The notes beneath the pieces were generated by a model that saw only the letters and a program-made list of their open reading frames with translations, was not told the origin of the DNA and made no database searches. DNA of 55,995 nt from Verrucomicrobiota bacterium (lineage in GTDB: Bacteria; Verrucomicrobiota; Verrucomicrobiia; Limisphaerales; Palsa-1400). The translations under genes and the position numbers were made by a program. This document shows, in pieces, positions 28,393-52,304 of this stretch. Where the stretch lies: positions 1 to 55,995 of the forward strand of contig JBEKYR010000035.1 of the NCBI GenBank assembly GCA_049510745.1. The letters are read 5' to 3'. The stretch's first letter is position 1; each line of letters starts with the position of its first letter.

Positions 28393-28503
28393 GGCCTGAA
28401 TTTACCACGGATTGCGGCTGGAACAAGCTTTGACCTTGAAAAGCGGTTGACAAGGCACGAAAATGAGGTTTAATTAAACATTAGTATTATTAGTAAGTCA
28501 CTT

Positions 28504-30177: not shown

Positions 30178-30186
30178 GATTGCGCC

Positions 30187-30969: not shown

Positions 30970-31020
30970 TTCCAAACCGCCGGGCCGGCAAGGCCGGCGG
31001 CGGAGAAAAAGGCGCAAAGC

Positions 31021-31833
31021 ATGGATTACCTGTCGGAACTGGAAAATCAGAGCGTGTATATCTTGCGCGAGGCGTTCAACAAGTTTGAAAACCTCGCCAT
31101 GTTGTGGAGCATTGGCAAGGACTCGACCGTCCTGCTCTGGCTGGCCCGCAAGGCTTTCTTCGGCCACGTGCCATTTCCGCTGGTGCATGTCGATACGACT
31201 TACAAAGTCCCCAGCATGATCGAGTACCGTGACCGCCTGGTGAAGGAATGGAACCTGAAACTGGTGGTGGGCAGGAACGACGCCGTCCTGGCCTCCGGCG
31301 TCACCTATCCCAATGGCCGCGCCACGCGCGTGGAATGCTGCGGCACCCTGAAAAAGGACGCGCTCAAAGCTGTGCTGGACAAATACCATTACACCGGCGT
31401 CATCGTCGGCGTGCGGCGGGACGAGGAGCCGACCCGCGCCAAGGAACGGTATTTCAGCCCGCGCGACAAGAACATGGAATGGAACGTGGAGGACCAGCCG
31501 CCGGAATTGTGGGACCAATTCAAGACCGATTTCGAGCCGGGGAGCCACATTCGCATCCATCCGTTGCTGCATTGGACGGAATTGAACATTTGGGAATACA
31601 TCGAGCGCGAAAAGATCCCGGTCATCCCGCTTTATTTTGCCAACAGCAAGGGCGAGCGCTATCGCAGCCTGGGCTGCGCGCCCTGCACCTTTCCCATCAA
31701 GTCCCAGGCCCGCACCGTGGCCGAGATCGTCGAGGAGTTGCGCCGGACCAAAACCAGCGAGCGTTCCGGGCGCGCGCAGGACAAGGAAAGCGAGGACGCT
31801 TTCGAGAAACTCCGCCGGGACGGCTACATGTAA
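31021..31833 (+). CDS. cysD: Sulfate adenylyltransferase subunit 2
   Basis: [28 protein letters not shown] and GYM C-terminus. Confidence 0.95.
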
Positions 31834-31845
31834 GAAAATTGCGCC

Positions 31846-33738
31846 ATGCAAAACGGCTCCACCGCACCTACCGAACAATTGAAGATCGTCATCGCCGGCC
31901 ACGTGGATCACGGCAAGTCCACGCTGGTGGGCCGGCTCCTCCATGACACCGGCTCGCTGCCCGAGGGCAAGCTCGAACAGCTTCGCGCCGTGGCCGAGCG
32001 GCGCGGGTTCCCCTTCGAGTGGGCCAATCTGATGGACGCCCTCCAGTCCGAGCGCGACCAAAACATCACCATCGACACGGCGCAAATCTGGTTCCGCACG
32101 GCGCGGCGGCAGTATGTGATTATTGACGCGCCGGGCCACAAGGAGTTCCTCAAGAACATGATCACGGGCGCCGCCCACGCCGAGGCCGCCCTGCTGCTGA
32201 TCGACGCCAACGAGGGGGTCCAGGAACAATCGCGGCGGCACGGCTATCTCCTCTCGCTCCTGGGCATCCGCCAGATCGCGGTGCTGGTCAACAAGATGGA
32301 CCTGCGGGGCTATGCGCGCGAGCGGTTCGAGGAAGTGGAAGCCGCCTTCCGCCAGTTTCTCAAATCCATCGGTGTCGAGCCGATGTGTTTCATCCCCATC
32401 GCCGCGCGGCAGGGCGACAACGTGGCGGCGCGCAGCGCACAGATGCCGTGGTGGACCGGGCCGACGGTGCTGGAGGCGCTCGACCAGTTCCAACCCGCCG
32501 TCCGCCCCGTCGGACAGCCGTTGCGCCTGTCGATCCAGGATATTTACCGCTTTGACGAGCGGCGCATCTTGGCGGGCCGGGTGGAATCGGGCGCGGTGAA
32601 GGTGGGCGACCGCCTGGTCTTTACGCCGGCCAACAAGGTGAGCACAGTCAAGACCATTGAACGCTGGAACGCACCGCCGTCCGACCAGGCAGAGGCGGGC
32701 GAATCGATCGGCATCACCCTGACCGAGCAGGTCTTTGTGGCGCGCGGGGCGGTGGCCTCGCTGGAAACCGGGCTGCCGTTCGAGTTGAACCGCTTCAAGG
32801 CCCGGCTTTTTTGGATGGGCCGCGCGCCGTTCCTGCCGGGCCGAAGCTACAAACTCAAGCTCGCCGCCCAGGAAACCGAGTGCGAAATCGATTCCATCCA
32901 GCGCGTGATCGATTCCTCGACGCTGGAAAGCATCGAGCGGCCGGAGCCGTTTGTCGGGCGGAACGAGGTGGCCGAATTGACCCTGCGGACCCGGCGCCCG
33001 ATCGCCTTCGACGTCCACGCCGAGATTATTGCGACGGGGCGCTTCGTCATTGTCGATGGATTCGAGGTGGCCGGGGGCGGCATTGTGGCCGAGGACAATT
33101 ACCCCCGCCGCTCGGCCGACAGCCTTCACAAGAGCCACAACATTTATTGGAGCCGCGGAAAAGTCACCGCCGGGCAACGCAGCGCGCGCAACGGGCACGC
33201 GGGCTGCGTCGTCTGGCTGACGGGCTTGTCCGCCTCCGGCAAATCGACCATCGCGACCGAATTGGAGCGGGAACTTTTCAACCTGGGGCACCACGTCTAT
33301 ATCCTGGACGGCGACAATGTCCGGCACGGCCTTTGTTCGGACCTGGCCTTCTCCCCGCGGGACCGGAAGGAGAACATCCGACGCGTCGGCGAGGCGGCCA
33401 AACTTTTTGCCGACGCCGGCATCATTTGCGTGACCGCGTTTATTTCGCCCTACCAATCCGATCGCGACCTGGTGCGGCAGATGGTTGAGCGGGGCATGTT
33501 TGTTGAGGTGTATGTCAACGCGCCGATCGAGGTCTGCGAGGCGCGCGATCCGAAGGGCCTCTATGCCAAGGCGCGCGCGCATCAGATCAAGGATTTCACC
33601 GGCGTCTCCGCGCCGTACGAAGCGCCCGCGACGCCGGAGATCGAGTTGCGCACCGACCAGTTGACGGTCGCGGAATCCGTCGCCCGCATCGTCGAGTATC
33701 TCCACGTCCGGGACGACAGCTCGGATGTGATGATCTGA
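31846..33738 (+). CDS. cysNC: Bifunctional sulfate adenylyltransferase subunit 1 / APS kinase
   Basis: [14 protein letters not shown] and NKMD GTPase motifs; C-terminal [26 protein letters not shown] and FTGVSAPYE. Confidence 0.95.
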
Positions 33739-34932
33739 GAAGTGGACCAGCCTTGACTGGGATCTCTGGAACGCCATTGAAAATTGGTAATTGAAAATCG
33801 AAAATCGGTAATTGAACAGCAGAACCGGCCTTGACCCCTCTGACGGTGGTTCTTTTGCGGCAAGCGATGTTGTCAGAAAAACAAAGCTTTCCAGGATAAC
33901 AGTAAAGGGGCGGCGGTTTCTGGTTTTCCCGCCGGCCGCTCGTTGGTTTTCCACCGGTGCCCTGGCGAGGCTCGAAAAACCGATTGTTTGTATGCGTCTG
34001 GTGCAGCACATTGAATTGGACGTGGTTTGCCGGTCTGATACAGTGCATTCCGAATGTCTGCAAATCAGGAACCGTTTCGTGAGATGGCGAAGGCTGTGAG
34101 GGGCCTTACGGCACTGGCGGAGGCGCGCAAGCCCAATGGCTAAACCAGAACAGCACGCGAGTCCGGACAGTCTCTTGGGGCAAGTCCAGCGTGGACGTGG
34201 GGAGGGTTATCTTCGGATTCTTTCAACGCCAAAGCGCGACGCCTGCCAGCTTTTGGTGGATTGTATATGCAATGACCCGCGACTCGACAGCCAAATTGAG
34301 AGTCGTGCCGAGTATTACGCTTCAATCGCAGTGGAGGTGGGACTTGACCTTGCGCCTTTGGCCAAACACTTGCGCGAACATGACGATACTGACGAAACGG
34401 GGGGGTGGAATACACCACTCACAGTTGGAACTCTTGGCGAACTGGCAAAACGGAGCTACCGTGACGCCGCCGGGATTCTTTGCGATTATGTGGCCTGGGG
34501 GCAATGGTGGGATTGGGAGTTGGACACTTTGACGGCTCTTTCTGACCCAGAAATTCAGAGGAAGGTGGCTGGCGCCGTTGAGCAGCACTTCCCATCCGAC
34601 GACGAGTTGGAGAAGGCATTGGCATGGTTTTTTCTTGACGAGGCGCCTTGGGTAACGCTCGCGGAGCAAAGCAAGAGAATTGGCAAATTTGGGAATAACC
34701 TCCGAAAAAGAGAGGGGTCGACTTCCGCCGAAGGGTCGTCTTCCCTCAATCTGACATCCTTGACTACAAGGCAACTTTTGGCGCTCGCGGATAATAGAAA
34801 CTGTCACAAGCTGCGCAAAGTAGTCGCGCAGCAAGTAACCCAATCGGATGTGGAACTCCTGATGGAGAATATTTCTCTTGACGGAACTATGCCTTTAACG
34901 CAAGGGCACACCAAACCCGCGAGGATGGGCGA

Positions 34933-38824: not shown

Positions 38825-39106
38825 TCAGCCTAATGTCCGGTCCCACATCGGTGTGCGGTGATAACTGATCAACAGCAGAGCCAAGACTGCGGCGGTAATC
38901 GAGCAAAGCAGGAACCAGCGCCAGGCTCGTGGGTGATTGACGTTGATTTTCAGAGCCGAACCGGCGAGATAGATCACAACGAGAACAATACCCATCAGTG
39001 CGCCGCTCCCAAGCGGGCCATGGATTCCCGTTTGAGATGCGGAAAGATACGCCAGGTGGATGTAGCTGCTCTTTTGCGGGACTTGGCTGTAAGCGATAAC
39101 TTTCAT
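38825..39106 (-). CDS. 93-aa protein with soluble N-terminus and two TM helices, coupled to the radical SAM gene
   Basis: ATG 39106 overlaps the rSAM stop (ATGA); MKVIAYSQVPQKSSYIHLAYLSAS followed by two hydrophobic segments. Confidence 0.6.
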   Translation of the reverse strand: MKVIAYSQVPQKSSYIHLAYLSASQTGIHGPLGSGALMGIVLVVIYLAGSALKINVNHPRAWRWFLLCSITAAVLALLLISYHRTPMWDRTLG

Positions 39107-40467
39107 ATCAAGGTTCTGGCGACTTGTTCCCGCGAAGCTTGTTGCTCGCGGGCCAGCCGCCACATTACGTAGGTTATGGTTTGTTTCAGATCTTCACAGT
39201 TCCAGTGCGGACGGGTCAAAGCGCCTTCCTGCTGCATGGTCTCTCCCGGACAGCCAGCCAGGCACCATCGTCTGACATGGCAGCCGTTGCAGGGGTGCGT
39301 GGGCGCATCGAGCGAGAGGCTCTGTCCAAAAGAAACTCCCTTCGCCAACGCCGACGCTCTGCCTTCCGTGACGTGGCCGAGCTTCAACTTGGGAATCGTT
39401 GTGTTTATGCAGGGGTAAATCGTTCCGTCCGCCTGAATTAGCAAAGTCTGAGTTCCGGTGCCGCAGGTCTTGCGCCGGGACGATTCGCGGAGCACCGAAC
39501 GGAGGATGGAGTAAAGATCGCTCCGGCACATCGGCTTGAGGGACGGATCGGCGTCAAGTTCCGCGCAAATCGCCTGCACGATCTCAAGCTGTGGAGCCGG
39601 CGTGACGGGTCCGGCGGCGGAGTTGCCGAGTTTTTTCAACGGAATGAATCGAACCTCTTGAACCCCCAGCGTCCGGGCCAAGCGGAAATACGCAGGAATC
39701 TCCAGGAGATTCTCACGACAGCAGACCATGCACATCGTTGTCGGGACCCGCTTCTCGACCAGGCGCCGGATAGTGGCCGTGGCTTTCTGGAAAGTGCCGT
39801 GACCACGAATGGCGTCGTTGGTATCTGGCGTGGCCCCATCCAGCGAGACCTGGACCTTCAGTCCGGCCTCAACCAAACCGCTGAGCAGGCTCTCGGTCAG
39901 GACGGTTCCATTGGTGGAAACGTTGCAGCCAAACTTGTGGCGTTTGGCCCATTGCCCAACCCGGATGACACCGGCTGGATGCAGAAAAGGTTCCCCGCCG
40001 AGCAGGCTCAAGGTGGCGTGGGAACTGAAACAGGGCCGAAGTTCATCAAGAAAACGCAGTCCCTGCTCCACGTCCAGTTTCGATCCGTTCCGCAGTTCCT
40101 GAGGAACGTAACAGGTGTGGCAGTTGAGATTGCAGGCCGTGACCAGATTAATGGTGACATTCTCCAGCAAAGGCGGAGGGGAAGATTTCGGATTGCGGCC
40201 GGTGAGTCCCGATTTTTCCATTTTTCGGAGTTGGGTCAGAATACTCCGCCCGTGGGGCTGCCAGGCGCGGTGCTGGCTCAAGATACCTTCGAGCGAGGTT
40301 GGTTTTTCGAGCGCGCGGAGAAGCTCCCGAAAATCTTCATCGACCACATGCCAGTAGCCCTCCTCTCCCCAAATCTGCAGGACGAGGCCGTTCTTTTGCT
40401 CGACGTGATCTGGAGGCCGGACGCGGAGGGGGCTTCGTGGGCGCAAAATCTGGTGGAGCAGAGACAT
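39103..40467 (-). CDS. Radical SAM/SPASM-domain protein (peptide-maturase-like)
   Basis: CNLNCHTC, GGEPF, STNGT, VSLDG, and a seven-Cys SPASM domain (CGTG...YPC...CNGC....WCLAGC...C) with a ~100-aa N-terminal extension. Confidence 0.9.
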   Translation of the reverse strand: MSLLHQILRPRSPLRVRPPDHVEQKNGLVLQIWGEEGYWHVVDEDFRELLRALEKPTSLEGILSQHRAWQPHGRSILTQLRKMEKSGLTGRNPKSSPPPLLENVTINLVTACNLNCHTCYVPQELRNGSKLDVEQGLRFLDELRPCFSSHATLSLLGGEPFLHPAGVIRVGQWAKRHKFGCNVSTNGTVLTESLLSGLVEAGLKVQVSLDGATPDTNDAIRGHGTFQKATATIRRLVEKRVPTTMCMVCCRENLLEIPAYFRLARTLGVQEVRFIPLKKLGNSAAGPVTPAPQLEIVQAICAELDADPSLKPMCRSDLYSILRSVLRESSRRKTCGTGTQTLLIQADGTIYPCINTTIPKLKLGHVTEGRASALAKGVSFGQSLSLDAPTHPCNGCHVRRWCLAGCPGETMQQEGALTRPHWNCEDLKQTITYVMWRLAREQQASREQVARTLI

Positions 40468-40671
40468 TGTTCTCAATCCTTTGATCGCCTCGCCGATCAG
40501 TAGAAATCTTTATGCGACAAACGCGCGCTTTTAGCAATAGAAATCCAGCCGCCCCACAATCGACACCGCCGCGTCCGCGGGGACGGCCCGGATGTGATGA
40601 TTTGACCCTGTCTGGAATCAGTTTTTTTGGGATTTAACCATTCAAGCAGCCTTATTGTAGTTGTAATATAC

Positions 40672-40746
40672 TTGTGCACAACATGTTACAATAATATAAT
40701 AACATGCAAGAATCTCTATTGACATTATAGAGATTATTGATATAGT
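40672..40746 (+). promoter_or_regulatory. AT-rich sigma70-type promoter with overlapping palindromic operators
   Basis: TTGACA (40719-24), 16 bp spacer, TG-a-TATAGT (40741-46). AATCTCTAT-N7-ATAGAGATT overlaps the -35; CATGTTA-N11-TAACATG and TTGTGCACAA lie upstream. Confidence 0.7.
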
Positions 40747-40758
40747 GGCGTCGTTCGA

Positions 40759-40962
40759 ATGAGCAACTTTGCGAAAATCGATACGGTGAATGCCAGGCTC
40801 CAAACGGCGGAGTCCCTGCCGGTTTGGTTGCAATTGGTTCGAGAGCACGTCCGTTCACTGAAGTTTGGAACGGTGCAGATCACGGTTCACGATTCGCGGG
40901 TGGTGCAGGTCGAGCGAGTCGAGAAGCTGCGCTTTGACAAGCCAGAAATTGACGGAGGCTGA
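40759..40962 (+). CDS. YezD/DUF2292-family small protein
   Basis: VRSLKFGTVQITVHDSRVVQVERVEKLRF signature. Confidence 0.85.
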   Translation: MSNFAKIDTVNARLQTAESLPVWLQLVREHVRSLKFGTVQITVHDSRVVQVERVEKLRFDKPEIDGG

Positions 40963-40977
40963 CGGGATGGCCGGAGG
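40959..40977 (+). promoter_or_regulatory. Candidate cis-RNA hairpin motif, copy 1 (CTGAC-x-GG-N4-CCGGAGG)
   Basis: CTGACGGGATGGCCGGAGG; second copy at 41892-41910. Confidence 0.5.
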
Positions 40978-41004
40978 TTTCCGTGGAAATGAAGAAGAAC
41001 AATT

Positions 41005-41847
41005 ATGAGGAATACGTCAAGTGTGGCCCGGCCCGAGGCCAGGGCAAGCGTTAGGAACGCGGTCGCGCCCGCCCGCCGTTCCATTGCCGATCTGCTGGCG
41101 CCGCTGGACCAGATGGCCGAGGATTCGCCCAACCTGGTTGTCGGTCGCGAGGCGCGGTTTGAAAGGGAGGGCGAATCTTACGTTCTCCCGCGGTATCTCT
41201 TCATCGGCCCCAAGAGCGGGGATGCGCCGATTCGGATCGGAATTTTTGCCGGGATTCACGGCGACGAACCGGAAGGGGCGTACGCGGCGGTCCGTTTTCT
41301 CAGGTTTTTGGAAACCTACGCTGAATTGGCGGCGGGCTATTGCCTGTCCGTTTATCCGGTGTGCAATCCCACCGGCTTTGAAGACAACACGCGGCACTCG
41401 CGGCGGGGGAAGGATTTGAACCGCGAGTTTTGGGCCAACTCGGCCGAGCCGGAAGTGGGGTTGTTGCAGGCGGAATTGGTGTCGCGTTCCTTTCACGGAA
41501 TCATCGCGTTGCACGTGGATGATACGAGCGATGGGTTTTACGGCATCGTGGGCGGGGCGACCTTGACCAAGCATCTGATTGAACCGGCGTTAAAGGCGGC
41601 GGACGCCTTCCTGCCGCTGGACAAACGGGCGCTGATCGATGGATTTCCGGCGCGGAATGGGGTCGTGCGCGATTCGTTTCCCGGCGTGTTGAGCGCTCCG
41701 CCAATAGTCCGGCCGCGCCCGTTTGAAATCATCCTGGAGGCGCCCAAAGGCCGTCCTGCGTATTTGACAGAGTGGGCATTTGTCGCCGCGTTGCAATCGA
41801 TCCTTGGGGGATACCGCAAGTTCATCGCCTACGCCCAGAACCTTTAA
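41005..41847 (+). CDS. M14-type Zn hydrolase (succinylglutamate desuccinylase/aspartoacylase family)
   Basis: AGIHGDEP, NPTGF...R, DLNREF, IALHxD and ILEAP. Confidence 0.85.
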   Translation: MRNTSSVARPEARASVRNAVAPARRSIADLLAPLDQMAEDSPNLVVGREARFEREGESYVLPRYLFIGPKSGDAPIRIGIFAGIHGDEPEGAYAAVRFLRFLETYAELAAGYCLSVYPVCNPTGFEDNTRHSRRGKDLNREFWANSAEPEVGLLQAELVSRSFHGIIALHVDDTSDGFYGIVGGATLTKHLIEPALKAADAFLPLDKRALIDGFPARNGVVRDSFPGVLSAPPIVRPRPFEIILEAPKGRPAYLTEWAFVAALQSILGGYRKFIAYAQNL

Positions 41848-41891
41848 TCGCCTACCTCAAATGAGAATGGCCGCAGCAAACAATATACGGA

Positions 41892-41910
41892 CTGACCGGT
41901 CCGCCGGAGG
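41892..41910 (+). promoter_or_regulatory. Candidate cis-RNA hairpin motif, copy 2
   Basis: CTGACCGGTCCGCCGGAGG, closed by GAC/GTC, upstream of the binding-protein gene. Confidence 0.5.
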
Positions 41911-41943
41911 TCTTCGATTCAAAACACAAAAACCGATTCACTC

Positions 41944-43023
41944 ATGAAACCACTTGAAGTTATGAAAAAAATGAACCTGAACAAATTCCTTGCCGCTGGA
42001 CTGGCTCTGGCGGGCATTGGCCTGGCGTCCGGCGCGCGGGCCCAAACGGTCGTGCTGTTTGGCGGGGGCAACGCCAGCCAGACGTTGCTCTATGATCGAG
42101 TGACCAACATCCTGACCGGCGGCATCACCTCGGTGACCATTTCTCCCACCAACGGCACGGTCCGCTCCTATGTCGGCTCGATTAGCGGGCAATCGGGCCT
42201 GGGAACGGTGACCATTCATTTCTCGCTTTTGGGAGCGGGGCAGGGATTGCAGGACGTGGAAGCGCAGAACGACGAGACGACGGCCACGGGCGCGTCGCTG
42301 CCGCCGACGGTGGCCGTATCGAGCGCGGCGCCGGAAGTGATTGGGATCGATCCGTCCACATTGACGCAGACCGAGACGCTGGTGGTGCCGTACGCGTACA
42401 TCAAAGGCACCTCGGCCAATCTGGCCGGCGTGACCAATCTGACCCAGCGTCAGGCGGCGTATTTGGAAGGGGCGGCGGGCACGTTGCCCTCGGCGTTTTT
42501 CGGCGGCAGCAGCACGAGCGACACAGTCTATCTGGTGCCGCGCAACACGGCTTCGGCAGTGCGCTTGGAGATTGACGCGAACGTTTACTTCACGGGAACC
42601 ATAGCCGCCTGGACGACCAACGGCTCGGGCCAACCCATTCCCGATCCCAACGGCGGACAAAGCAGCGGCAGCGCGGTCAGGGGAGTGCTGAAGGCTCTGC
42701 CCGACGCCATCGGGACGGTGGCGGCGCAGGACATTGGCACCTATACGCCGCTGGCTTACGAAGGGGTTCCATTCTCGGTGACCAACGTCGAGAACGGGAG
42801 CTATCCGTTGTGGGGTTACGAGCGCTGGCTCTATCCCAACACCGGTCAGCAAGGAGCGCCGAGCGCCAACCAACTCATCGTCATCAATCACCTTTTGGGC
42901 GCGGTCACAAACGCCAACTTTCAAGCCACCAACGCCCTTTTTGTGGGGAATTTTGCCCCGCTCGGCGGCCTGCAAGTCCAGCGCTTGTCCGATGGCGGCC
43001 CGATTACCTCGACGCTCTATTAA
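41944..43023 (+). CDS. Secreted PstS/PBP-superfamily-like substrate-binding protein, Cys/Met-free mature chain
   Basis: Signal peptide ending ARA, N-terminal GGNAS, R-x3-S loop (PRNTASAVR) and NGSYPLWGYE motif. Start may be 41944, 41962 or 41971. Confidence 0.65.
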   Translation: MKPLEVMKKMNLNKFLAAGLALAGIGLASGARAQTVVLFGGGNASQTLLYDRVTNILTGGITSVTISPTNGTVRSYVGSISGQSGLGTVTIHFSLLGAGQGLQDVEAQNDETTATGASLPPTVAVSSAAPEVIGIDPSTLTQTETLVVPYAYIKGTSANLAGVTNLTQRQAAYLEGAAGTLPSAFFGGSSTSDTVYLVPRNTASAVRLEIDANVYFTGTIAAWTTNGSGQPIPDPNGGQSSGSAVRGVLKALPDAIGTVAAQDIGTYTPLAYEGVPFSVTNVENGSYPLWGYERWLYPNTGQQGAPSANQLIVINHLLGAVTNANFQATNALFVGNFAPLGGLQVQRLSDGGPITSTLY

Positions 43024-43052
43024 CGCGCCACCCCTGATTTATCCATCAGCCT

Positions 43053-43982
43053 ATGAAAAAGATTTCCTATTTAACTCTCGCCGGGCTGGCGTGGCTGGCG
43101 TGGCTGGCCACGCCCCTGGCGAGAGCTTGGACTTACCAGGACGGCGATGTCCTGCTCATCTTCCGGGAATCCGGATTCAACGACGTGGAGTTCGACATTG
43201 GAGGGATCAGCCAATTTCTCAACCAGTCCAGCGGCTACACGGCCCCGGTGACGGGGTGGGATTTGGGGCTGGTGACCAACGTCTTCGGCTCCGATCTGAC
43301 CGGCGTGAGCATTATTCTGGCCGCGACCACCAGCCGGACCAACGCCGTTCGCAGCACCTGGCTCACCAGCAGCGAGAGCGTGACATCGGTTGGCGATGTG
43401 ACGGCATCGGCGTGGCAGAGCGAGCTTTGGAGCATCATCAATTCCATTGGCACGCGGCCGGTGATTTACCTCGTGCCGCCGACGAATGCTGCCTATGTGA
43501 TTGACCCCGGGGGCACTTATCGGCTGGCGTCTTACGACTACATTGTGACGGGAGGGGGGGTGAACGGGAATTCGATCTCGGAGTTTGGCGGCAACGCGGC
43601 CTTCAACGTGGAGGGAATCATCCCCGGAACGGTGGGTTTCTGGCAAATCCAGCCGACCAACGCCATTCCCAAACCGGCCGCGACCTACGTGGGCAGTTTC
43701 AGTATTGACGCAAGCGGGAACCTCAACTTCGTGGCCGGGGCGCCGCAAGCGCCCCAACCGACGATCGTGGGGTTTGGGCGGAGCGGCAACGTCAGCACGG
43801 TGAGTTTCACCACGGTGGCCAGCGGCAATTACACGCTGGTTTACACCAACACCCTGGGCGCCGCCATCGGCACGTGGCCGGCGGTGAGCGGCCCGATTGC
43901 GGGCGACGGGAGCACCCAGTCGCTCACGCACACAAACTCGGTTGACAGCGCCGGTTTTTACGGGGTCTTGCGATCCCCGTGA
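43053..43982 (+). CDS. Secreted beta-rich protein with C-terminal FY(R/G) domain, Cys/Met-free mature chain
   Basis: Signal peptide ending ARA, YQDGDVLLIFR...DVEFDIG, and C-terminal YTLVY...L...W...GDG...GFYGV. Confidence 0.8.
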   Translation: MKKISYLTLAGLAWLAWLATPLARAWTYQDGDVLLIFRESGFNDVEFDIGGISQFLNQSSGYTAPVTGWDLGLVTNVFGSDLTGVSIILAATTSRTNAVRSTWLTSSESVTSVGDVTASAWQSELWSIINSIGTRPVIYLVPPTNAAYVIDPGGTYRLASYDYIVTGGGVNGNSISEFGGNAAFNVEGIIPGTVGFWQIQPTNAIPKPAATYVGSFSIDASGNLNFVAGAPQAPQPTIVGFGRSGNVSTVSFTTVASGNYTLVYTNTLGAAIGTWPAVSGPIAGDGSTQSLTHTNSVDSAGFYGVLRSP

Positions 43983-44064
43983 GGCAGATTCGCAGTGCGC
44001 GGCAGGCCGTTCTTCGGCGGCCTGCCGCGGTCGGTTCCATTTGTAGAGAGGACAACCACAACAA

Positions 44065-45921
44065 ATGAAGTTTCAGACAGGATTGACCGCCATGCTCATG
44101 CTTGGAACAGCAACGAACAGCCCCACACAGCCGGCCAACCCACTTTCCACTGACAGCGCAAAGTCTGCCGGACCGGCGTTCCGCGTCACGGCCTACAAGA
44201 TCGAGGGAAACACCGTCCTGCCGCCGGAGAAGTTCGATTTTCTCACCAACTATACCGGCTCCGCCGTGGACCTGGCGCGGCTGCGCGAAGGATTGGGCGA
44301 ACTGCAACTGCTCTACCGCAATCTCGGTTTCGCCACCGTCAGCATCACGTTGCCGCAGCAACGGCTCACCAACGGGATTGTCCGGGTCAAGGTTATTGAA
44401 GGGACACTGGCCGGCATCAGCGTGGCGGGCAATCATTACTTCAGTTCCAACAATGTTCGGCGCGCCCTGCCCAGCCTTAAAACCAACATTCTCCTCAACA
44501 CCAAGTGGCTCCAGCCGGAGATGGATCGCGCCAACCAGAATCCCGACCGCCAGATTTATCCCGTCGTTTCGCCCGGCGCGGAGCCGGGATTGAGCGACCT
44601 GACGCTGCGGGTGAAAGACCGCCTGCCGCTGCACGGGCACATCGAAGTCAACGATAAATCGACCCCCGGCACGCCCATCCTGCGCCTGGACACCGCCCTG
44701 CAATACAACAATCTCTGGCAGCTCGAACATCAGATCGGACTCCAGTACGGTTTTGCCCCGCAAAGCAGCAAGCCGGACGACTACCTGCCGCGGTTCTATG
44801 ACCAGCCGATGGTGGCGAGCTACAGCGCCTTTTATCGCATCCCGTTTCGTTCCGACGCCGGCTTGCGGGATGAGTACGAGCGGTTGCCGGTGGATTTCGG
44901 TTACAACGAAATCACCCACCAGTTCCATCTGCCGGCAGCGAGCGGGAATCCCGAATTGACAATCTATGGGTCGCGCTCCGGTTCCGACACGCCGGTGCGG
45001 TACGGCCCGCTGACCGCTGTGGTGAGCAGTCCGCTGGTCCAGATCACCAGCCAATCGGCCGAGCGCGATCTGACCTTCACCGAAAACGTCGGGGCGAAAT
45101 ATGCCCTGCCGCTGACGGAGTTTTCCGGCGTCCACTCGTCGTTGACCCTGGGGTTCGACTTCAAGAACTACCGGCTGCGGAGTTTCGCCACCAATCTCTC
45201 CTATTTCACCACCACCCTGACCAACAGTGGCGTCGCCAGCACAACGAACTTTGTCATTGCCCTGCCGTCCAACGGGCGTGAAGACGTCACCTATATGCCG
45301 TTGTCATGGGGCTGGTCGGGGGAGCGGCCGGACCAACGGGGAAGCACCAGTCTGAGTCTCGAGCAGGATGTTTTTCCCTGGCCGCTGGCTTCGTCACGGC
45401 CCAACTTCCAGACGGCCGCCGGTTCCGAGGCTGCGGGCGGCAATTACACCAAGGTCACGGCTAACGCGGCCCGCGAAGAAAAACTGCGCGCCGGATGGTC
45501 GATCCTGTGGCGGGCCGCGGGCCAATGGGCCAGCGAGCCGCTGATCAGCAACGAGCAATTTCCCCTCGGCGGCACGGCGGGCGTGCGCGGTTATCAGGAG
45601 GGAGAAACCTACGGCGACACCGGGTGGCGCACGACCCTGGATTTGCGCGCCCCGGCCGCCGGGATCGGGTCGTTTCCGGTGGGGAGCGGAACCGTTCCGG
45701 CCTTGGCGCGGCCGGCGGTGTTCATGGACTACGGCGAGGTGTATCTACTTGACAGATCGGATGCGCCCGCCGTGCGGCAATGGGGAACCGGCTTTGGAGT
45801 CTTTGTGACCGCCGGGCAGCATTTTGACGCGCGATTGAGTCTGGGCTGGGCGCTGCGGAACACGCCCGTGACGGCGGCCGGGAGCCTGCGCGCTTACTTC
45901 TCCGTTGGACTCCAATTTTAA
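44065..45921 (+). CDS. TpsB (ShlB/FhaC/HecB family) Omp85 transporter
   Basis: POTRA region (YKIEGNTVL...YRNLGF...LPQQ...VIEG), VRGY motif and C-terminal Phe. Confidence 0.92.
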   Translation: MKFQTGLTAMLMLGTATNSPTQPANPLSTDSAKSAGPAFRVTAYKIEGNTVLPPEKFDFLTNYTGSAVDLARLREGLGELQLLYRNLGFATVSITLPQQRLTNGIVRVKVIEGTLAGISVAGNHYFSSNNVRRALPSLKTNILLNTKWLQPEMDRANQNPDRQIYPVVSPGAEPGLSDLTLRVKDRLPLHGHIEVNDKSTPGTPILRLDTALQYNNLWQLEHQIGLQYGFAPQSSKPDDYLPRFYDQPMVASYSAFYRIPFRSDAGLRDEYERLPVDFGYNEITHQFHLPAASGNPELTIYGSRSGSDTPVRYGPLTAVVSSPLVQITSQSAERDLTFTENVGAKYALPLTEFSGVHSSLTLGFDFKNYRLRSFATNLSYFTTTLTNSGVASTTNFVIALPSNGREDVTYMPLSWGWSGERPDQRGSTSLSLEQDVFPWPLASSRPNFQTAAGSEAAGGNYTKVTANAAREEKLRAGWSILWRAAGQWASEPLISNEQFPLGGTAGVRGYQEGETYGDTGWRTTLDLRAPAAGIGSFPVGSGTVPALARPAVFMDYGEVYLLDRSDAPAVRQWGTGFGVFVTAGQHFDARLSLGWALRNTPVTAAGSLRAYFSVGLQF

Positions 45922-48900
45922 TGAAGGCGAAACTCCACCCCCGCCGTTTTGCGCGCTGGCTCACGCTTTGCCTGGCGCTGGGCGCCGCCGGTCATGCGCC
46001 GGCCAATCCCGCCGGCCTGACGGTGAAGTCGGGATCGGCCAGCGCGCAATCCGCCGGTTCGCAATTGACCGTCAGCACCGGCCCGTTGACGTTGCTCAAT
46101 TGGAGCAGTTTCAACATCCAGAAGGGTGAAACCACCACTTTCGTTCAACCGTCCGCGAATTCGGTCGTTTTCAACGTCATTGGCGATTCAAACCCGTCGC
46201 AGATTTTTGGCAGCCTCGATGCCAATGGCACCGTCATCCTCGCCAACGCCCATGGTTTTTATTTCGGGCCGAATTCCGTCATCAACGTCGGCGGCAGTTT
46301 CGTGGCCAGCACCGCGCCGTTGCGGCCGGACCTGGGGGCGGGGGCCGGTTGGGAGTTCACGGGCCTGCCGCCGCTGGCCCGCATTGTCAACTACGGTCAA
46401 ATCTCGGCGGGCCAGGGACACTCGCTCTTTCTCATTGCGGAAAATGTTGAAAATCACGGCGAGCTGATCGCGCCGGGCGGCAGCGTGGGGCTTTATGCCG
46501 GACAAGAGGTGCTGGTCACGGAACGGGCTGACGGACGCGGGTTGAGCGCGGCAGTGAAGCTCCCGGCCGGTTCGGTCGATAATTCCGGCCGCCTCATCGC
46601 TGATGCCGGGACCATCGCGATGCGCGCCCAAGTGGTCAATCAAAACGGCGTGATCCAGGCCGATTCCGTTCGCGAGCAAAACGGCACGATAGAACTGGTG
46701 GCCGCCAGCCAGTTGAATCTCGGCCCCAATTCCCAAATCCTCGCCCATGGTGACGATTCCCCGCCCGACAGTCCGGGCGGCGGCGTCACTCTTAAGTCGG
46801 GCCACACTTTTGTTGACAGTATCGGGAGTCAAATCATTACAAGCGGCGGAGCGCACGGGGGCAACGGCGGCAATGTGGAAGTCAGCGCGCCGAACATTCT
46901 CTCGCTGGATTCGAGGATGGACGCGAGCGCGCAAACCGGTTTCACCGGCGGACAACTGTTGCTCGACCCCGCGAACATCACGCTGGGCACGTCCGGCAGC
47001 GGCAGCGCCGGCACTGGGACGGTGGCGGCGGGGAGCGGTTCGGGGACATTGCAATTAAACGTCAATTCCGCGTTTGCCAACAAGAATGTTTCCCAGATCA
47101 CGCTGCAAGCCACCGCCAACATCACCCTCGCCGCCGGGACGGTTTGGAATCTCAGCAAAAGCACCGGCGAACAGAGCGGCCTGCTGACCTTGCAGGCGGG
47201 AGGCAACATTGTCTTCGGAAACAATTCGCAGATTGTGGATGCCAACAATTGGTCGGTGACCTTGCAGGCGGGTGTGAACTTCACTTCCGGCGCGGTGCAG
47301 CCGGGCGTTGGCTCGATCTATTTGAACGGCGGCAGCGGCCTGAAGTTGAACGGAACGGTTCAAACTTCCGGCGGCGACATCACCATGACGGCGGGGCAGG
47401 ACATTTTGGCCGGGACCGGCGGCATTCGCACCGTTGGCGGGGGCAACATCAACCTCCAGGCGATTTCCGGTGATATCAATGCGGGCACGGGCAACGGCGG
47501 CTATCAGTTTTCCATTTTCGGCTACAGCGTCGGCGCCAGCCCGGGCGGCATCGCCACAGCGGCCGGGGGGAATGTCACGCTGCAAGCCGGCGACGATATC
47601 ATCAGCACGCCGACCGTGCCGTCGGGCCAGCCGCCCGGAGCCTCCGGTGCTTACGGCAGCCAGCCCGGCAACGTGACGCTCATTGCCGGCAACCAAATCC
47701 TCGGCAATTACACCCTGGCCAATGGCGTCGGCACGGTGCTCGCAGGGGTGCAGGTCCAGAACGGACAGGTCACGCAGATTCTCGATCCCACCGCCGATGT
47801 CGGCAGTTCGACCCGTCCGGTGAGCCTGAGTTTGATTGACGGTTCCTGGAATGTTTGGGCCGCGCGCAACCTTTACATCGGCGAGGTGCGCAATCCCGAT
47901 GGCACTTTCAATAACAATGCGTTGACCGTGCCGGCCGGAGAGTTTTCCGGGAACACCGACAATCCGACTGTCCCGGTTCGAACGCAATTTTTGTTCGACT
48001 ACGCGCCGAACGCGGCGGCCAATTTCTGGGCCGGCGACGGCATCACCCTGGTTGGCGGGAACCTGCCGCGGGTCCTTGGCCAAAACCAGGACATGCCTCC
48101 CATTTACCCGCCGATTCTGACGTTAAACGCCGGGGCGGGCGGAATTACGATTGACAATCCGATTATTCTCTACCCGTCCAGCCAAGGGGCGCTCCAACTG
48201 ATCACCAGCGCGGGCGGCGATCTGGCGGGCGCCTACCTGCAGGGAACGCTGACGGGCATCACGATGTCGGACAGCGGGTTGCCGGGCTTCGCCACTTTCA
48301 GCCAGGGCCACGCCACCACGCCGTTGCACCTCAACGATCCCAATGCCGTGGTGGCCGACATTTCCGGCGACATCGATTCGTTCGGTTTGACAGTGCCGAC
48401 CTTCGCGCAAATCGCGGTGGCCGGCAGCACCTATAATTTTGGTTTCCTGGGCCAGAATTTGTCGCATTCGCAAACCACCTCCATCACCGTGGCGGGTGAC
48501 ATAACTTATCGGGGCGACCTCACCAGTGTCCCGCTGGCCACGCCGCTGCCCAAGGCGCTTTTTAACGCGGCCCTGAGCGGCGACGGGGAGGTTGCGGGCA
48601 AACTTCGCTACGATGCTTCGACCGGCACGTTGACCTTCATAGGCCAGATGTCGGCCACGGAACTGGCGTTCCTGCTGAATCCCTTCGAGTTGGTGTTGAA
48701 CCAATCCGGCAAGCCGATCCTCGGCGCGAACGGCCAACCGCTGACCAAACCGCTGACCCTCACCGCCGGCCAACAGGCCGCCCTCCAGCAACTTTACACC
48801 GCCAGCCAGACCGCCACGCTGGGCGACCAGGGCCTGGCAGTCGCCGGCCCCGGACATTTCGAGGTGAACGCGCGCAACATCGACCTCGGCATCTCCGGAG

Positions 48901-49973
48901 GCATCCAGGTGCTCGCGCCCGATTCGGCGCTGGCCGCCATTTCCCCTGACGGGGCCGATCTGACGATTAACGTCTCGGGCAACGTGGATATGACATCCTC
49001 AAAAATTGCCGATGAAGGGCTGCTGGGCGGCTTGCAATTAACCGTCGGCCATACGCTCGACGTGGGCGGCCAATTCACCACCTTTGGCGATCCCAACGCC
49101 GCCAAAGGCATTTTCACCACCAGCGGCGGCGGCATTTCGATCACGGCCGGCGGCGACGTGAACGTGGATGGCTCGCGCATCGCCACTTACGACGGCGGCA
49201 ATATCAATATCCGCTCCACCACCGGCGACGTGAACGCCGGCTCCGGCGGAGTGGGCTACGTCACAATGGAGGGCCTGGAACTGAACCCTCACACCGGGAA
49301 GTTGGTTGCCATTCCGGCCACGATTGCCGGCAGCGGCATTTTGGCCACGACACTGCCCGGCTCTGACGGCCTGCTGGGCAACATCACCATCGACACGCCG
49401 GAAGGAAGCATCAACGCCAGCGCGGGCGGCATCATCCAGATCGCCCTCAACGGCGCCGATTCACACAATAATTCCATCACTCTCAACTCCGGCAAGGATA
49501 TCGACGCCGCCGGCTCCGGCATCATTGGCGCCAATCTGCAACTCAACGCGGGCGGCAACGTCAACGGCATCCTCGTCAGCACCGGAGGGATTCAAGTCCA
49601 ATCATTGGCCAACGTTAACGTGACGGCGTTTGGCCGCGGCGACGTCTCCATCTCCGCCGTGGGCGAGGTCACCGGCACCGTCATCACCAGCGGCGCCGCC
49701 AGCGTGAGCGGTGAATCCATCACCGCGGCCCTGATCTCCCAGTCGGTCTCCACTTCCGGCAATACGACCGCCGCCGCCCTCGGCGTCCCGGCCTCCAACG
49801 TCACCAAGGAAGACGCCAAGGTGGCCGACGACGCCTCGGCCGCGGTCGTCAAGGCCGATGAAACCGCCAGCGACGACGACCAGAAGAAAAAGCACAACAC
49901 CACCACCCTCGCGCAAAAAGCCGGTCGCGTCACCGTCCTTTTGCCGGGCAAGAAGAACCCCACCCATTTATGA
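45921..49973 (+). CDS. TpsA filamentous-hemagglutinin-family exoprotein (1350 aa)
   Basis: Signal peptide, TPS domain (NWSSFNI, NPSQIFGSLDANGTVILANAHG), GGNVEVS...LLDP and Gly/Thr/Asn-rich beta-helix repeats. Confidence 0.92.
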   Translation: MKAKLHPRRFARWLTLCLALGAAGHAPANPAGLTVKSGSASAQSAGSQLTVSTGPLTLLNWSSFNIQKGETTTFVQPSANSVVFNVIGDSNPSQIFGSLDANGTVILANAHGFYFGPNSVINVGGSFVASTAPLRPDLGAGAGWEFTGLPPLARIVNYGQISAGQGHSLFLIAENVENHGELIAPGGSVGLYAGQEVLVTERADGRGLSAAVKLPAGSVDNSGRLIADAGTIAMRAQVVNQNGVIQADSVREQNGTIELVAASQLNLGPNSQILAHGDDSPPDSPGGGVTLKSGHTFVDSIGSQIITSGGAHGGNGGNVEVSAPNILSLDSRMDASAQTGFTGGQLLLDPANITLGTSGSGSAGTGTVAAGSGSGTLQLNVNSAFANKNVSQITLQATANITLAAGTVWNLSKSTGEQSGLLTLQAGGNIVFGNNSQIVDANNWSVTLQAGVNFTSGAVQPGVGSIYLNGGSGLKLNGTVQTSGGDITMTAGQDILAGTGGIRTVGGGNINLQAISGDINAGTGNGGYQFSIFGYSVGASPGGIATAAGGNVTLQAGDDIISTPTVPSGQPPGASGAYGSQPGNVTLIAGNQILGNYTLANGVGTVLAGVQVQNGQVTQILDPTADVGSSTRPVSLSLIDGSWNVWAARNLYIGEVRNPDGTFNNNALTVPAGEFSGNTDNPTVPVRTQFLFDYAPNAAANFWAGDGITLVGGNLPRVLGQNQDMPPIYPPILTLNAGAGGITIDNPIILYPSSQGALQLITSAGGDLAGAYLQGTLTGITMSDSGLPGFATFSQGHATTPLHLNDPNAVVADISGDIDSFGLTVPTFAQIAVAGSTYNFGFLGQNLSHSQTTSITVAGDITYRGDLTSVPLATPLPKALFNAALSGDGEVAGKLRYDASTGTLTFIGQMSATELAFLLNPFELVLNQSGKPILGANGQPLTKPLTLTAGQQAALQQLYTASQTATLGDQGLAVAGPGHFEVNARNIDLGISGGIQVLAPDSALAAISPDGADLTINVSGNVDMTSSKIADEGLLGGLQLTVGHTLDVGGQFTTFGDPNAAKGIFTTSGGGISITAGGDVNVDGSRIATYDGGNINIRSTTGDVNAGSGGVGYVTMEGLELNPHTGKLVAIPATIAGSGILATTLPGSDGLLGNITIDTPEGSINASAGGIIQIALNGADSHNNSITLNSGKDIDAAGSGIIGANLQLNAGGNVNGILVSTGGIQVQSLANVNVTAFGRGDVSISAVGEVTGTVITSGAASVSGESITAALISQSVSTSGNTTAAALGVPASNVTKEDAKVADDASAAVVKADETASDDDQKKKHNTTTLAQKAGRVTVLLPGKKNPTHL

Positions 49974-50761
49974 CAACCCTTAGCGCCACCCCCATGTTTG
50001 CCGCCGGCGCGTTGCAATTCGCATTCGAAAAAGCGACCATCGAAGGCAAGCTCACCATCCTGACGTTGTTCGTCCTCTCGCTTTTTAGCTGGACGATCAT
50101 CATTACCAAATTCCGGCAGCTTCACCTCGCGCGAAAATGGGCCAGGCGATTTTTCGCCGCCTACGGTTCCACCCGCGACCCGCTGGACATCAAACGGCGC
50201 GGCGAGGTCTTTGTCGGCGCTCCCGCCTATCAGCTTTATATCCGCGGGGCCGACGAACTGGATTATCACCTCAAACAGAATCCCGTGCTGATCAACGGCC
50301 AAAGACGCATCAGCCCGGCGTCCTTTGAAGCGGTGAAAGTCGCGCTGGAAGAGGCGGCGGCGGCCGAGGCGCTTTCGTTGGAAAAGGGGATGATTGTGCT
50401 TTCCACGGCGGTGGCGGGCGGGCCGTTCATTGGTCTGTTGGGGACGGTTTGGGGGGTGATGGAAACCTTCGCGGGCATCGCGCGGGCCAGTTCCGCCAGC
50501 CTCACGGCCATGGCTCCCGGCGTGGCGGGGGCGCTCATCGCCACCGTCACCGGCCTGCTGGTCGCCATCCCGGCGATGTTCGCCTACAATTTCATGGTCA
50601 CCACCATACGCGCCATCACCCAGGAATTGGACGGTTTTGCCACCCGTTACGCCACGCAAATCGACCATATCTATGTGGACAACCGGGACCTGGAGGACAA
50701 GATCGCCGGCGCCATCAAGCGGATGGAGAAGATGGAGAACTCTTCCGCGCTCGTCGCATGA
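49970..50761 (+). CDS. exbB: MotA/TolQ/ExbB proton-channel protein
   Basis: GPFIGLLGTVWGVM and PGVAGALIATVTGLLVAIPA. Confidence 0.9.
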   Translation: MTTLSATPMFAAGALQFAFEKATIEGKLTILTLFVLSLFSWTIIITKFRQLHLARKWARRFFAAYGSTRDPLDIKRRGEVFVGAPAYQLYIRGADELDYHLKQNPVLINGQRRISPASFEAVKVALEEAAAAEALSLEKGMIVLSTAVAGGPFIGLLGTVWGVMETFAGIARASSASLTAMAPGVAGALIATVTGLLVAIPAMFAYNFMVTTIRAITQELDGFATRYATQIDHIYVDNRDLEDKIAGAIKRMEKMENSSALVA

Positions 50762-51168
50762 TGAAAAAGTGTTCCCGCAGCGCGCATCACACGCTTACGG
50801 AGTTGAACATCACTCCTTTGCTCGACCTGGCCTTTGTGCTCCTGGTGATCTTCATCATCACGACCACGCCGCTGGTGAACGATCTGGATTTGAAACTGCC
50901 CACCGCCTCCAGACACGAGAAAGACCCGCCCCGCAAGGCCAATTATATTACCGTCGAGGCCGGCGGCAGAATATGGATCAATAAGAAAGCCGTGGACATG
51001 GCCGAACTGCAGGGGACGCTGGCCGGCCTGCGCGTGGACGATCCTGACCTGAGTGTCATTGTGCGGGGCGACGGCAAGGCGAAGTACCGGCAAATCCGCG
51101 CCGTGCTCGACGCCTGCCAGCAGGCCAACGTGGTAAAAGTGGATTTGGCCACCGAAACCGCCAAGTAG
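50758..51168 (+). CDS. exbD: ExbD/TolR protein
   Basis: LNITPLLDLAFVLLVIFII and VIVRGD; ATG 50758 overlaps the exbB stop. Confidence 0.9.
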   Translation: MMKKCSRSAHHTLTELNITPLLDLAFVLLVIFIITTTPLVNDLDLKLPTASRHEKDPPRKANYITVEAGGRIWINKKAVDMAELQGTLAGLRVDDPDLSVIVRGDGKAKYRQIRAVLDACQQANVVKVDLATETAK

Positions 51169-51180
51169 GAGGAACCCGCC

Positions 51181-51885
51181 ATGTTGCCGCAAAGTCCAGC
51201 CCGTCCGGAGCAAAACTCGCCCAAGGTCAACCTGCTGATTTCGCTGGCCTTCCACGGGGCCGTCGTTCTGGCGCTGGTTTTTTTCGCCGCGCGCGAGGGT
51301 TTGCTTGGCGAGCAATTGAAAAAAATCACCGTCGAGATGGTGAAGGAAACGCCGCCGGAAAAACCCAGGGAACCGGAAAAGCCGGCGATGGAACCGCCCA
51401 AAGCGGAACCGCCCAAAATCGTTGAGGCCCCGAGATTTGAAGCCGCCAGAGTCGAGCCGCCGAAAGATAGCGGGCCGGCTCCGCCGGCCGCCGCGGTCAG
51501 CGCGCCCGCCGCGGTTGCGCCGGCGGCGGCGGAATTGCCGTCATTCGAGTTCGGCGGCGGCAAAGCGGTGCAGACCAGTTCGGACCCCGTGTTGCTTTAC
51601 AGCGCCGCGGTGGAGTTCGCGCTGCGCTCAAAATGGCGCCGCCCCGCCAACATCGCCGACGACAATTACGCGGCCGAAGTGGAGGTGACGGTGGATCGCG
51701 ACGGACACCTCAGCGATCCCGTATGGAAGAAAGGTTCCGGCGACGCGCGCTGGGATGATTCCGTGCGCCAGGCGGTCGCCGCCACAAGGAATCTGGACCG
51801 GCCACCGCCGGCGAACTTTCCCCGGCGTGTCCTGGTCCGCTTTGACGTTGAGGATGTGACGGAGCCTGTGGGGATCAGCGAATGA
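51181..51885 (+). CDS. TonB/TolA-like energy transducer
   Basis: TM helix with S-x3-H (SLAFH), Pro/Glu/Lys linker and C-terminal domain (VTVDRDG...SGDARWDDSV...PP). Confidence 0.85.
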   Translation: MLPQSPARPEQNSPKVNLLISLAFHGAVVLALVFFAAREGLLGEQLKKITVEMVKETPPEKPREPEKPAMEPPKAEPPKIVEAPRFEAARVEPPKDSGPAPPAAAVSAPAAVAPAAAELPSFEFGGGKAVQTSSDPVLLYSAAVEFALRSKWRRPANIADDNYAAEVEVTVDRDGHLSDPVWKKGSGDARWDDSVRQAVAATRNLDRPPPANFPRRVLVRFDVEDVTEPVGISE

Positions 51886-52304
51886 AGAAAACCAACCAGA
51901 GCCATCACGGCACGCTGGCGGCGTTGAACATCACGCCGTTGCTGGACCTGGTTTTCGTGCTGCTGGTCATCTTCATCATCACGACGCCGCAATTGATGAA
52001 TAATCTGGAGATGGCGCTGCCCTCAGCCAAACCGCCTGTCATCCAACCCGGCCAGCCAAAACCGAAGTTCAACAAAATAATTGTTGACGAAAAAGGCCAA
52101 ATCCAGTTGAACGGCGAAGCCCTGACCCTTGCCGCCCTGAAGAACAAGCTGCGCCGGTTGAAGGCCGATGATCCCGGTCTGAGCGTGGTGGTCAAAGGCG
52201 CCGACGAGGTTGATTACCAGGACATGGTCGATGTCCTGGACCTGCTCCGGCAACTGGACATCACCAAAGTGGGGCTGGCGACCGAGGCGGCCGGGAATGG
52301 ATGA
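51882..52304 (+). CDS. exbD: Second ExbD/TolR protein
   Basis: LNITPLLDLVFVLLVIFII and VVVKGAD...ITKVGLAT. Confidence 0.9.
   Translation: MKKTNQSHHGTLAALNITPLLDLVFVLLVIFIITTPQLMNNLEMALPSAKPPVIQPGQPKPKFNKIIVDEKGQIQLNGEALTLAALKNKLRRLKADDPGLSVVVKGADEVDYQDMVDVLDLLRQLDITKVGLATEAAGNG

Follow-up and report, generated by a model that had tools for sequence, protein, structure and literature searches.

What does a TonB-ExbBD motor drive when it is encoded together with a two-partner secretion (TPS) pair but without a TonB-dependent transporter (TBDT)? In textbook accounts, type V secretion draws on no outer-membrane energy source and TonB acts on plug-barrel receptors; both sets of genes meet in one operon of a Verrucomicrobiota bacterium (assembly GCA_049510745.1). 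The operon lies on contig JBEKYR010000035.1, analysed here over its full length of 55,995 nucleotides (the window), which is contig C35 of a 5.6-Mb host genome. We conclude that the operon is very probably under sulfur control, that its motor probably grips the C-terminal tail of the secreted partner TpsA, as judged from a complex model, and, tentatively, that the cassette is a motor-driven surface collector related to the PdtAB-ExbBD-TonB locus and deployed in sulfur starvation.

Gene organization of the cassette

Ten co-directional genes, all on the + strand, span 40672..52304, as had been predicted from the sequence:

40759..40962, + strand: yezD, OscA-like small protein (DUF2292); PF10055 over cut-off, NF033785 (sulfur-starvation OscA) at E 5e-12, under cut-off
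41005..41847, + strand: putative M14/AstE-like zinc hydrolase; PF24827 and conserved motifs
41944..43023, + strand: secreted PstS-fold binding protein; PDB sequence matches (all PstS), structure model and motifs
43053..43982, + strand: secreted 'FYR' protein; sequence composition and N-domain fold comparison
44065..45921, + strand: TpsB, PdtB-like Omp85 barrel; POTRA_2 and ShlB, 25-30% identity to PdtB-type proteins
45921..49973, + strand: TpsA, beta-helix of 1350 residues, compact homologue of DUF3739/PdtA-type proteins; TPS domain, profiles and model
49970..50761, + strand: ExbB/TolQ-type proton channel; family models
50758..51168, + strand: ExbD/TolR-type subunit 1; start at 50758 or 50761
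51181..51885, + strand: TonB/TolA-like transducer with a TonB_2 C-domain, of a subfamily tied to this TPS clade
51882..52304, + strand: ExbD/TolR-type subunit 2; family models

The original prediction of tight gene overlaps was confirmed (TAATG for tpsB/tpsA; ATGA for tpsA/exbB, exbB/exbD and tonB/exbD), as was that of a ten-gene operon devoid of a TBDT, none of the ten genes being one in a Pfam scan. The pair belongs to type Vb secretion, TpsB combining POTRA_2 with ShlB and TpsA a signal peptide and TPS domain with a beta-helix. The binding protein and the FYR protein had no Pfam match; an Atlas search returned no named family for the FYR protein, whose N-domain fold is common to PEP-CTERM, PKD and Ig surface proteins of Verrucomicrobiota. 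The M14 hydrolase has no signal peptide, and its catalytic motifs are intact.

The arrangement had been presented as a new system, a claim that does not stand: a TPS, ExbBD and TonB layout was described in 2009 in Pseudomonas aeruginosa and several other bacteria, in which TPS, ExbBD and PA0696 were already linked (PMC2729926). The P. aeruginosa locus, PdtA/PdtB-ExbB2-ExbD2-TonB4-PA0696 (PUMA3/sigma-VreI regulon), is induced by phosphate starvation (PMC7035377, PMC2729926); PdtA is listed there with function unknown and grouped among adhesins (PMC5422565, PMC2729926), and the ExbB2-ExbD2-TonB4 motor beside PdtAB was called uncharacterized in an account of 2020. Our comparison ran through plasmid loci with this gene order, found by the window TpsB, and not through P. 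aeruginosa's own sequences. One plasmid locus has phoU, a porin gene and, immediately before tpsB, the gene of a canonical phosphate-type binding protein. The TpsB, ExbB, ExbD, TonB domain and both TpsA ends of these loci are homologous to those of the window, where TpsA matches the N-terminus and the DUF3739-bearing C-terminal part of the large plasmid proteins (profile E values 5e-18, 2e-25 and 4e-15); Pfam DUF3739 itself has no match on the window TpsA. The best plasmid match of TpsA, from Ralstonia, was an unrelated TPS gene without a motor and was set aside.

Judged by homology and gene order, the window operon is a compact verrucomicrobial relative of the PdtAB-ExbBD-TonB locus. Both have a TPS pair with its own ExbB-ExbD-TonB, no plug-barrel TBDT and, in the window by prediction, induction by nutrient starvation. 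They differ in the nutrient (sulfur instead of phosphate) and in the size of TpsA (1350 instead of 3500-4100 residues); the window has two ExbD, a short ExbB, a binding protein without the phosphate-binding aspartate (Asp-less), and added yezD and M14 genes, but lacks ECF sigma/FecR, PPIase, YbjN and a porin, Porin_5 being present in some phosphate-type relatives only. A literature search, in which subscription papers were thinly covered, found no account of a verrucomicrobial cassette of this kind, of a sulfur version or of a TonB box located in TpsA. What is new is the sulfur version, the model of a TonB contact on the TpsA tail, the operator, the double origin and an AraC fusion, the layout itself being already known.

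The motor accompanies the TPS pair

A TonB-domain profile and a profile of the TpsA C-half were run on 401 genomes of the order; each matched 99 of them, with both in 93, neither in 296 and one alone in 6 and 6; the binding protein accompanied TpsA in 82 of 85 genomes. A further 300 genomes of the phylum yielded just seven weak TonB matches. The cassette is common, roughly one in four of the order's sampled genomes having it, and its carriers are soil and freshwater bacteria; named relatives of the window TpsB come mostly from bins of Verrucomicrobia subdivision 3/Limisphaerales. For gene neighbourhoods, 56 regions were fetched around binding-protein matches, representing the upper part of 103 listed places and so biased to close relatives, and 18 more around tpsB; the analysis used the 66 loci in which the binding protein could be classified. 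The 41 unlabelled open reading frames (ORFs) of at least 550 residues in these loci included no TBDT. The neighbourhood check proposed with the prediction thus found the motor co-conserved with this TPS clade and TBDTs absent from its loci. In phylogenetic trees TpsA and TpsB follow the type of binding protein and ExbB follows host lineage; by these trees, one motor can replace another, and the binding protein and TPS pair move as a unit.

The host has a second, scattered copy on contig C3, ordered exbB-exbD-tonB-exbD, araC, tpsB, tpsA, then binding protein, FYR and Porin_5. This copy (G000:C3:123000-153000; L001, L002) is of the phosphate type, has a weak repeat resembling a Pho box ahead of exbB, and lacks the sulfur operator; its porin found no match among plasmids.

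A candidate TonB contact in the TpsA tail

Two features of TpsA suggest where the motor may act:

49791..49973, + strand: disordered TpsA tail, residues 1291-1350; pLDDT <50
49914-49949, + strand: candidate TonB/TolA box, TpsA residues 1332-1343; conserved strand and complex model

In the structure model of TpsA residues 470-1350 (pLDDT 86), a beta-helix extends to about residue 1290 and is followed by the disordered tail; Foldseek returned only weak beta-helix matches for the C-half. In 49 of 54 TpsA proteins the end consists of a charged, low-complexity linker followed by a terminal strand of the GRVTV(I/L)LP type; the five proteins without the strand are cut short or split. Proteobacterial TpsA-type proteins end in analogous strands, where the tail profile has no match. 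Modelled together, TonB residues 128-234 and TpsA residues 1311-1350 scored 0.62 against 0.13 for the best of three controls. Of solved pairs, 116 of 157 reached that mark, and of mismatched pairs, 2 of 215; the runs shared 84% or more of their contacts, with a partner pLDDT of at least 52. The modelled tail runs along TonB strand 216-226 and sets the invariant TpsA Arg1336 against the invariant TonB Asp222.

Edge-strand pairing is the known binding mode of TonB and TolA boxes. As in TonB-dependent transporters and TolA-TolB, a periplasmic strand on a flexible linker would pair here with the edge strand of a TonB/TolA domain; the candidate box, however, would sit at the C-terminal end of a secreted passenger that runs through an Omp85 barrel, whereas that of a transporter precedes the plug of a 22-strand barrel. 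The Omp85 barrel and/or the TpsA stalk had been proposed as the TonB-energised component, and the complex model supports the TpsA part of this proposal, at its C-terminal tail. A periplasmic location has precedent in HxuA, HMW1 and FHA, whose C-termini stay in the periplasm (PMC5422565). The closest functional parallel, HxuCBA of Haemophilus influenzae, uses a tethered TpsA to strip its ligand from a surface carrier protein, and its C-terminus is expected to be periplasmic (PMC5422565). HxuA passes haem to the separate TBDT HxuC, where TonB acts, whereas the window has no TBDT, a self-made carrier and a modelled TonB site on TpsA. The box would name a contact joining type V secretion and TonB, and give a normally unpowered export route an energy source.

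Binding protein and sulfur signature

The binding-protein model (pLDDT 93.5) has its best Foldseek matches in PstS. Likeness to Sbp/CysP was found neither in Pfam or NCBIfam nor among the 40 Foldseek matches listed. Asp56 of PstS accepts the proton of phosphate, and sulfate has none. E. coli PstS contacts phosphate through Thr10, Phe11, Ser38, Asp56, Arg135, Ser139, Gly140 and Thr141 and does not bind sulfate (PMC6549937). We aligned 69 binding-protein rows, including two identical pairs, after dropping one duplicate locus and one partial ORF. Forty rows (phosphate-type) retain Thr, Ser, Asp and Ser-Gly, with Thr141 in 38; 21 others (group S1, including the window) and eight (group S2) are without equivalents of Thr10, Ser38, Asp56 and Thr141, Thr10 and Asp56 being placed by motif. 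Several pocket hydroxyls are lost in these 29 Asp-less rows and the pocket arginine is kept in all of them. Aligned to the host PstS, the window protein keeps Arg135 and Ser139 and has Ser38 changed to Ala and Gly140-Thr141 to Ala-Val; by motif, Thr10 is replaced by Asn and Asp56 by Ser. It has the fold and pocket arginine of PstS, DING and PhoX proteins in common, but no ABC partner in the operon. The altered anion-binding motif of the original prediction is borne out, several of the phosphate contacts being replaced in S1 and S2 rows.

Phosphate-type domains also occur as the C-terminal domain of surface proteins of 1500-3100 residues in L043, L065, L066 and L067, and the three of these four giant proteins that were scanned carry phytase-like or PhoD phosphatase domains. 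These fusions to giant surface enzymes would place the binding domain outside the cell.

Altogether, the link to sulfur starvation was well supported by four lines: the binding-site change, the loss of Cys and Met, the gene neighbours and a shared operator. The gene neighbours are divided sharply, 28 of the 29 Asp-less rows lying beside yezD, M14, cysK, sbp, cysI or metB and none of the 40 Asp-bearing rows doing so. Genes for cysK, metB and cystathionine beta-synthase lie inside or beside sulfur-type loci, M14 is present in 14 of these and in no phosphate-type locus, and the DUF2292 gene, as in OscA/YezD, heads a sulfur operon here; some Asp-bearing loci adjoin ars or pst genes. Cys plus Met make up 0.04% of sulfur-type against 1.78% of phosphate-type binding proteins and 0.00-0.02% against 0.94% of FYR proteins, the difference being much smaller in TpsA, TpsB and ExbB. 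The predicted absence of both residues from the secreted proteins consequently applies to the binding protein and FYR after the signal peptide but not to TpsA, with eight internal Met, or TpsB, with four. The cysIHDNC operon that had been taken as a further clue does lie 7.0 kb upstream (28504-33738), with an IS1595 transposase, an IS66 fragment and a radical SAM/SPASM gene in between, but is weak evidence, cysI having an operator score of 5.8 bits against 21.4 at yezD; in one further locus cysI is a neighbour of the cassette. A cysNC label for L029 was discarded, the match being a weak one to a GTPase.

Phosphate-type cassettes often lie beside arsR, arsC, arsM, acr3 or aquaporin genes (L021, L024, L026, L070, L079; G000:C3:140757-141833), which suggests phosphate scavenging under arsenate stress.

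A shared operator

Upstream of yezD, two elements overlap:

40712..40734, no strand assigned: palindromic operator overlapping the -35 box; de novo motif, 21.4 bits, second in the genome
40719..40746, + strand: sigma-70-type promoter; 11 of 12 matches

The operator motif was learnt de novo from the regions upstream of yezD in other genomes, 22 in all, and had 24 matches of at least 11 bits in the host. The highest belonged to a cysK-metY operon, the second to the cassette and the fourth to porin-sbp-cysTWA beside an Rrf2 gene; match 3 fell inside an ORF and no sulfur operon lay downstream of match 8. Scores below 6 bits were obtained for the C3 paralogue, pstS and cysI. For the window operon these sequence features favour control by sulfur over induction through PhoB under phosphate starvation. 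The operator is probably the site of an Rrf2-family sulfur repressor. The top-ranking region (G000:C28:52300-55856) holds cysK and metY together with the gene of a secreted, Cys-free protein resembling DUF3034; in L040, too, the cassette is followed by a DUF3034 gene.

Two probable origins of the sulfur type

When the pocket columns were left out of the binding-protein tree, S1 and S2 each fell among a different set of Asp-bearing groups, and a single S1+S2 clade was rejected (p-AU 0.00024, LG+G4, 38 of 69 rows, in a test set after the first tree had been seen). The TpsA tree agrees with two origins; in the TpsB tree the two groups come together, though weakly (94, unstarred). The sulfur type thus probably arose twice, and the two lineages offer a natural experiment in how a PstS pocket could exchange phosphate for an oxyanion of sulfur.

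An N-terminal AraC regulator shares a single ORF with TpsB, ahead of a stretch like a signal peptide, the POTRA part and the barrel, in 26 of 29 phosphate-type cases (L022, L024, L031, L034-L036, L038, L039, L042, L043, L046, L060, L062, L064-L067, L069-L072, L077, L079, L085-L087) and in none of 28 sulfur-type cases, an oddity in that a cytoplasmic DNA-binding domain is joined to an outer-membrane barrel. AraC and TpsB are split in G000:C3, L044, L063 and L076.

Proposed mechanism and alternatives

In the proposed collector, an Rrf2-type repressor would leave the operator when sulfur is short, and the binding and FYR proteins would be made in excess, as a hairpin downstream of their genes may indicate, at no sulfur cost. 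TpsA would be exported via TpsB and stay threaded, its 60-residue tail held in the periplasm by analogy with HxuA, HMW1 and FHA; the TonB domain would bind the tail strand by beta-augmentation, as modelled, and ExbBD would pull. The pull might then reel in or strain the stalk, bringing a binding protein, presumably docked on TpsA and carrying sulfate or another, related oxyanion of sulfur, to the membrane to be unloaded, and the anion might enter via TpsB or a porin and pass to the Sbp-CysTWA of the same regulon; this last step is the weakest, and that the pull serves uptake at all is a view we hold at slightly below an even chance. A collector feeding a pore is favoured over a complete transporter because of the porins in S2 loci and the missing plug. 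It is possible, though rather doubtful, that PdtA-type TPS systems form a second class of TonB-powered outer-membrane uptake machine, with TpsA as a receptor bearing a C-terminal TonB box, TpsB as the barrel and a swappable binding protein setting the nutrient, re-specified from phosphate to sulfur twice in Verrucomicrobiota with nearly the same pocket changes. If true, this would also explain the TonB4 system of Pseudomonas and bear on the role of ExbB2-ExbD2-TonB4 beside PdtAB.

Several observations weigh against the collector. The host already has a porin and Sbp-CysTWA; no folded plug domain was seen in the TpsA model; and O/P-type porins occur in seven of eight S2 loci and Porin_5 in several phosphate-type loci, so that TpsB need not be the channel. 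The partner pLDDT in the complex is just 53. Similar TonB- and TolA-box complexes have already been solved, and the model's pass may therefore reflect memory, that is, likeness and not binding. In several genomes tonB and tpsA are far apart or on different contigs, and the loci are related, so their counts are not independent tests. In the pocket, automatic alignment recovered only Ser38 and Arg135-Thr141, the equivalences of Thr10 and Asp56 being motif mapping.

The motor could instead grip the same tail for biogenesis, holding, tensioning, releasing or recycling TpsA or helping binding-protein export, with TpsA a scaffold holding binding proteins on the cell surface and the anion entering passively by porins. 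The tail and the complex model would be the same, porins lie in or near many loci and TpsA has no plug domain, the NCBIfam scores of the motor proteins are closer to TolQ/TolR/TolA than to ExbB/ExbD/TonB, and the retained C-terminal part of FHA controls release (PMC5422565). Yet TPS export needs no outside energy in vitro (PMC5422565), and a dedicated four-gene motor in nearly every carrier would be costly for a one-off step, which leaves biogenesis unlikely, if not strongly so. That the motor energises another outer-membrane protein, an O/P or Porin_5 porin or a TBDT elsewhere, with the TPS pair merely co-regulated, is improbable: Porin_5 does follow tonB in proteobacterial loci, at a PA0696-like position, and of the host's TBDTs (four matches above the Pfam cut-off) two have no adjoining motor, but the window cassette and most S1 loci have no porin, the C11 TBDT comes with a tonB-exbB-exbD of its own, the C1 and C6 ones lie beside sensor kinases, none is near an operator match, and the motor tracks TpsA across genomes with a tail model that passes.

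A different ligand would fit the collector and the biogenesis explanation alike. An organosulfur compound (sulfonate, sulfate ester, thiosulfate or N-acyl sulfur amino acid) processed by M14 and CysK would account for the restriction of M14 to sulfur-type loci and for the cysK, metB and cystathionine beta-synthase genes in or by them; the host already has a sulfate ABC system, and the lost pocket hydroxyls leave space for a non-polar group. The invariably kept pocket arginine argues otherwise, as does the lack of any recognised sulfatase or sulfonate monooxygenase among the recurring neighbours, a selection of which was scanned against Pfam, and we regard such a ligand as conceivable but the less probable option. 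Finally, the locus might encode an adhesin that sulfur starvation induces, its binding protein being vestigial, in keeping with the grouping of PdtA among adhesins; that the pocket changed in parallel in two lineages, with strict conservation, and that Cys and Met were strictly lost argue for an abundant, working binding protein, and make this very improbable.

Other elements of the window

Three further elements lie between the genes of the cassette:

40959..40978, + strand: CCGG-loop-CCGG element, degenerate copy; conserved intergenic element
41892..41911, + strand: second, intergenic copy, before the binding-protein gene
43998..44029, + strand: 14-bp hairpin without a U-run, between the binding-protein genes and the machine genes; sequence

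A strong hairpin is present as well in eight of nine other S1 loci examined, and that of the window probably sets the binding proteins in excess. The CCGG-loop-CCGG element occurs on the sense strand before M14, cysK or binding-protein genes, and its strict pattern was found in 15 of 20 S1, 1 of 8 S2 and none of 38 phosphate-type loci; a loose pattern, with 79 matches in the genome, was uninformative and was rejected. Rfam gave no credible match for the element in the window (three at chance level) or in four related loci. As a guess, it could be an RNA site for YezD.

The 1837-codon open frame opposite cysIHDNC (28498-34011, - strand) has no Pfam match and is probably a shadow ORF. The radical SAM/SPASM gene (39103-40476, - strand), divergent from yezD, resembles peptide maturases, with all matches under cut-off, and is not kept beside the cassette in relatives.

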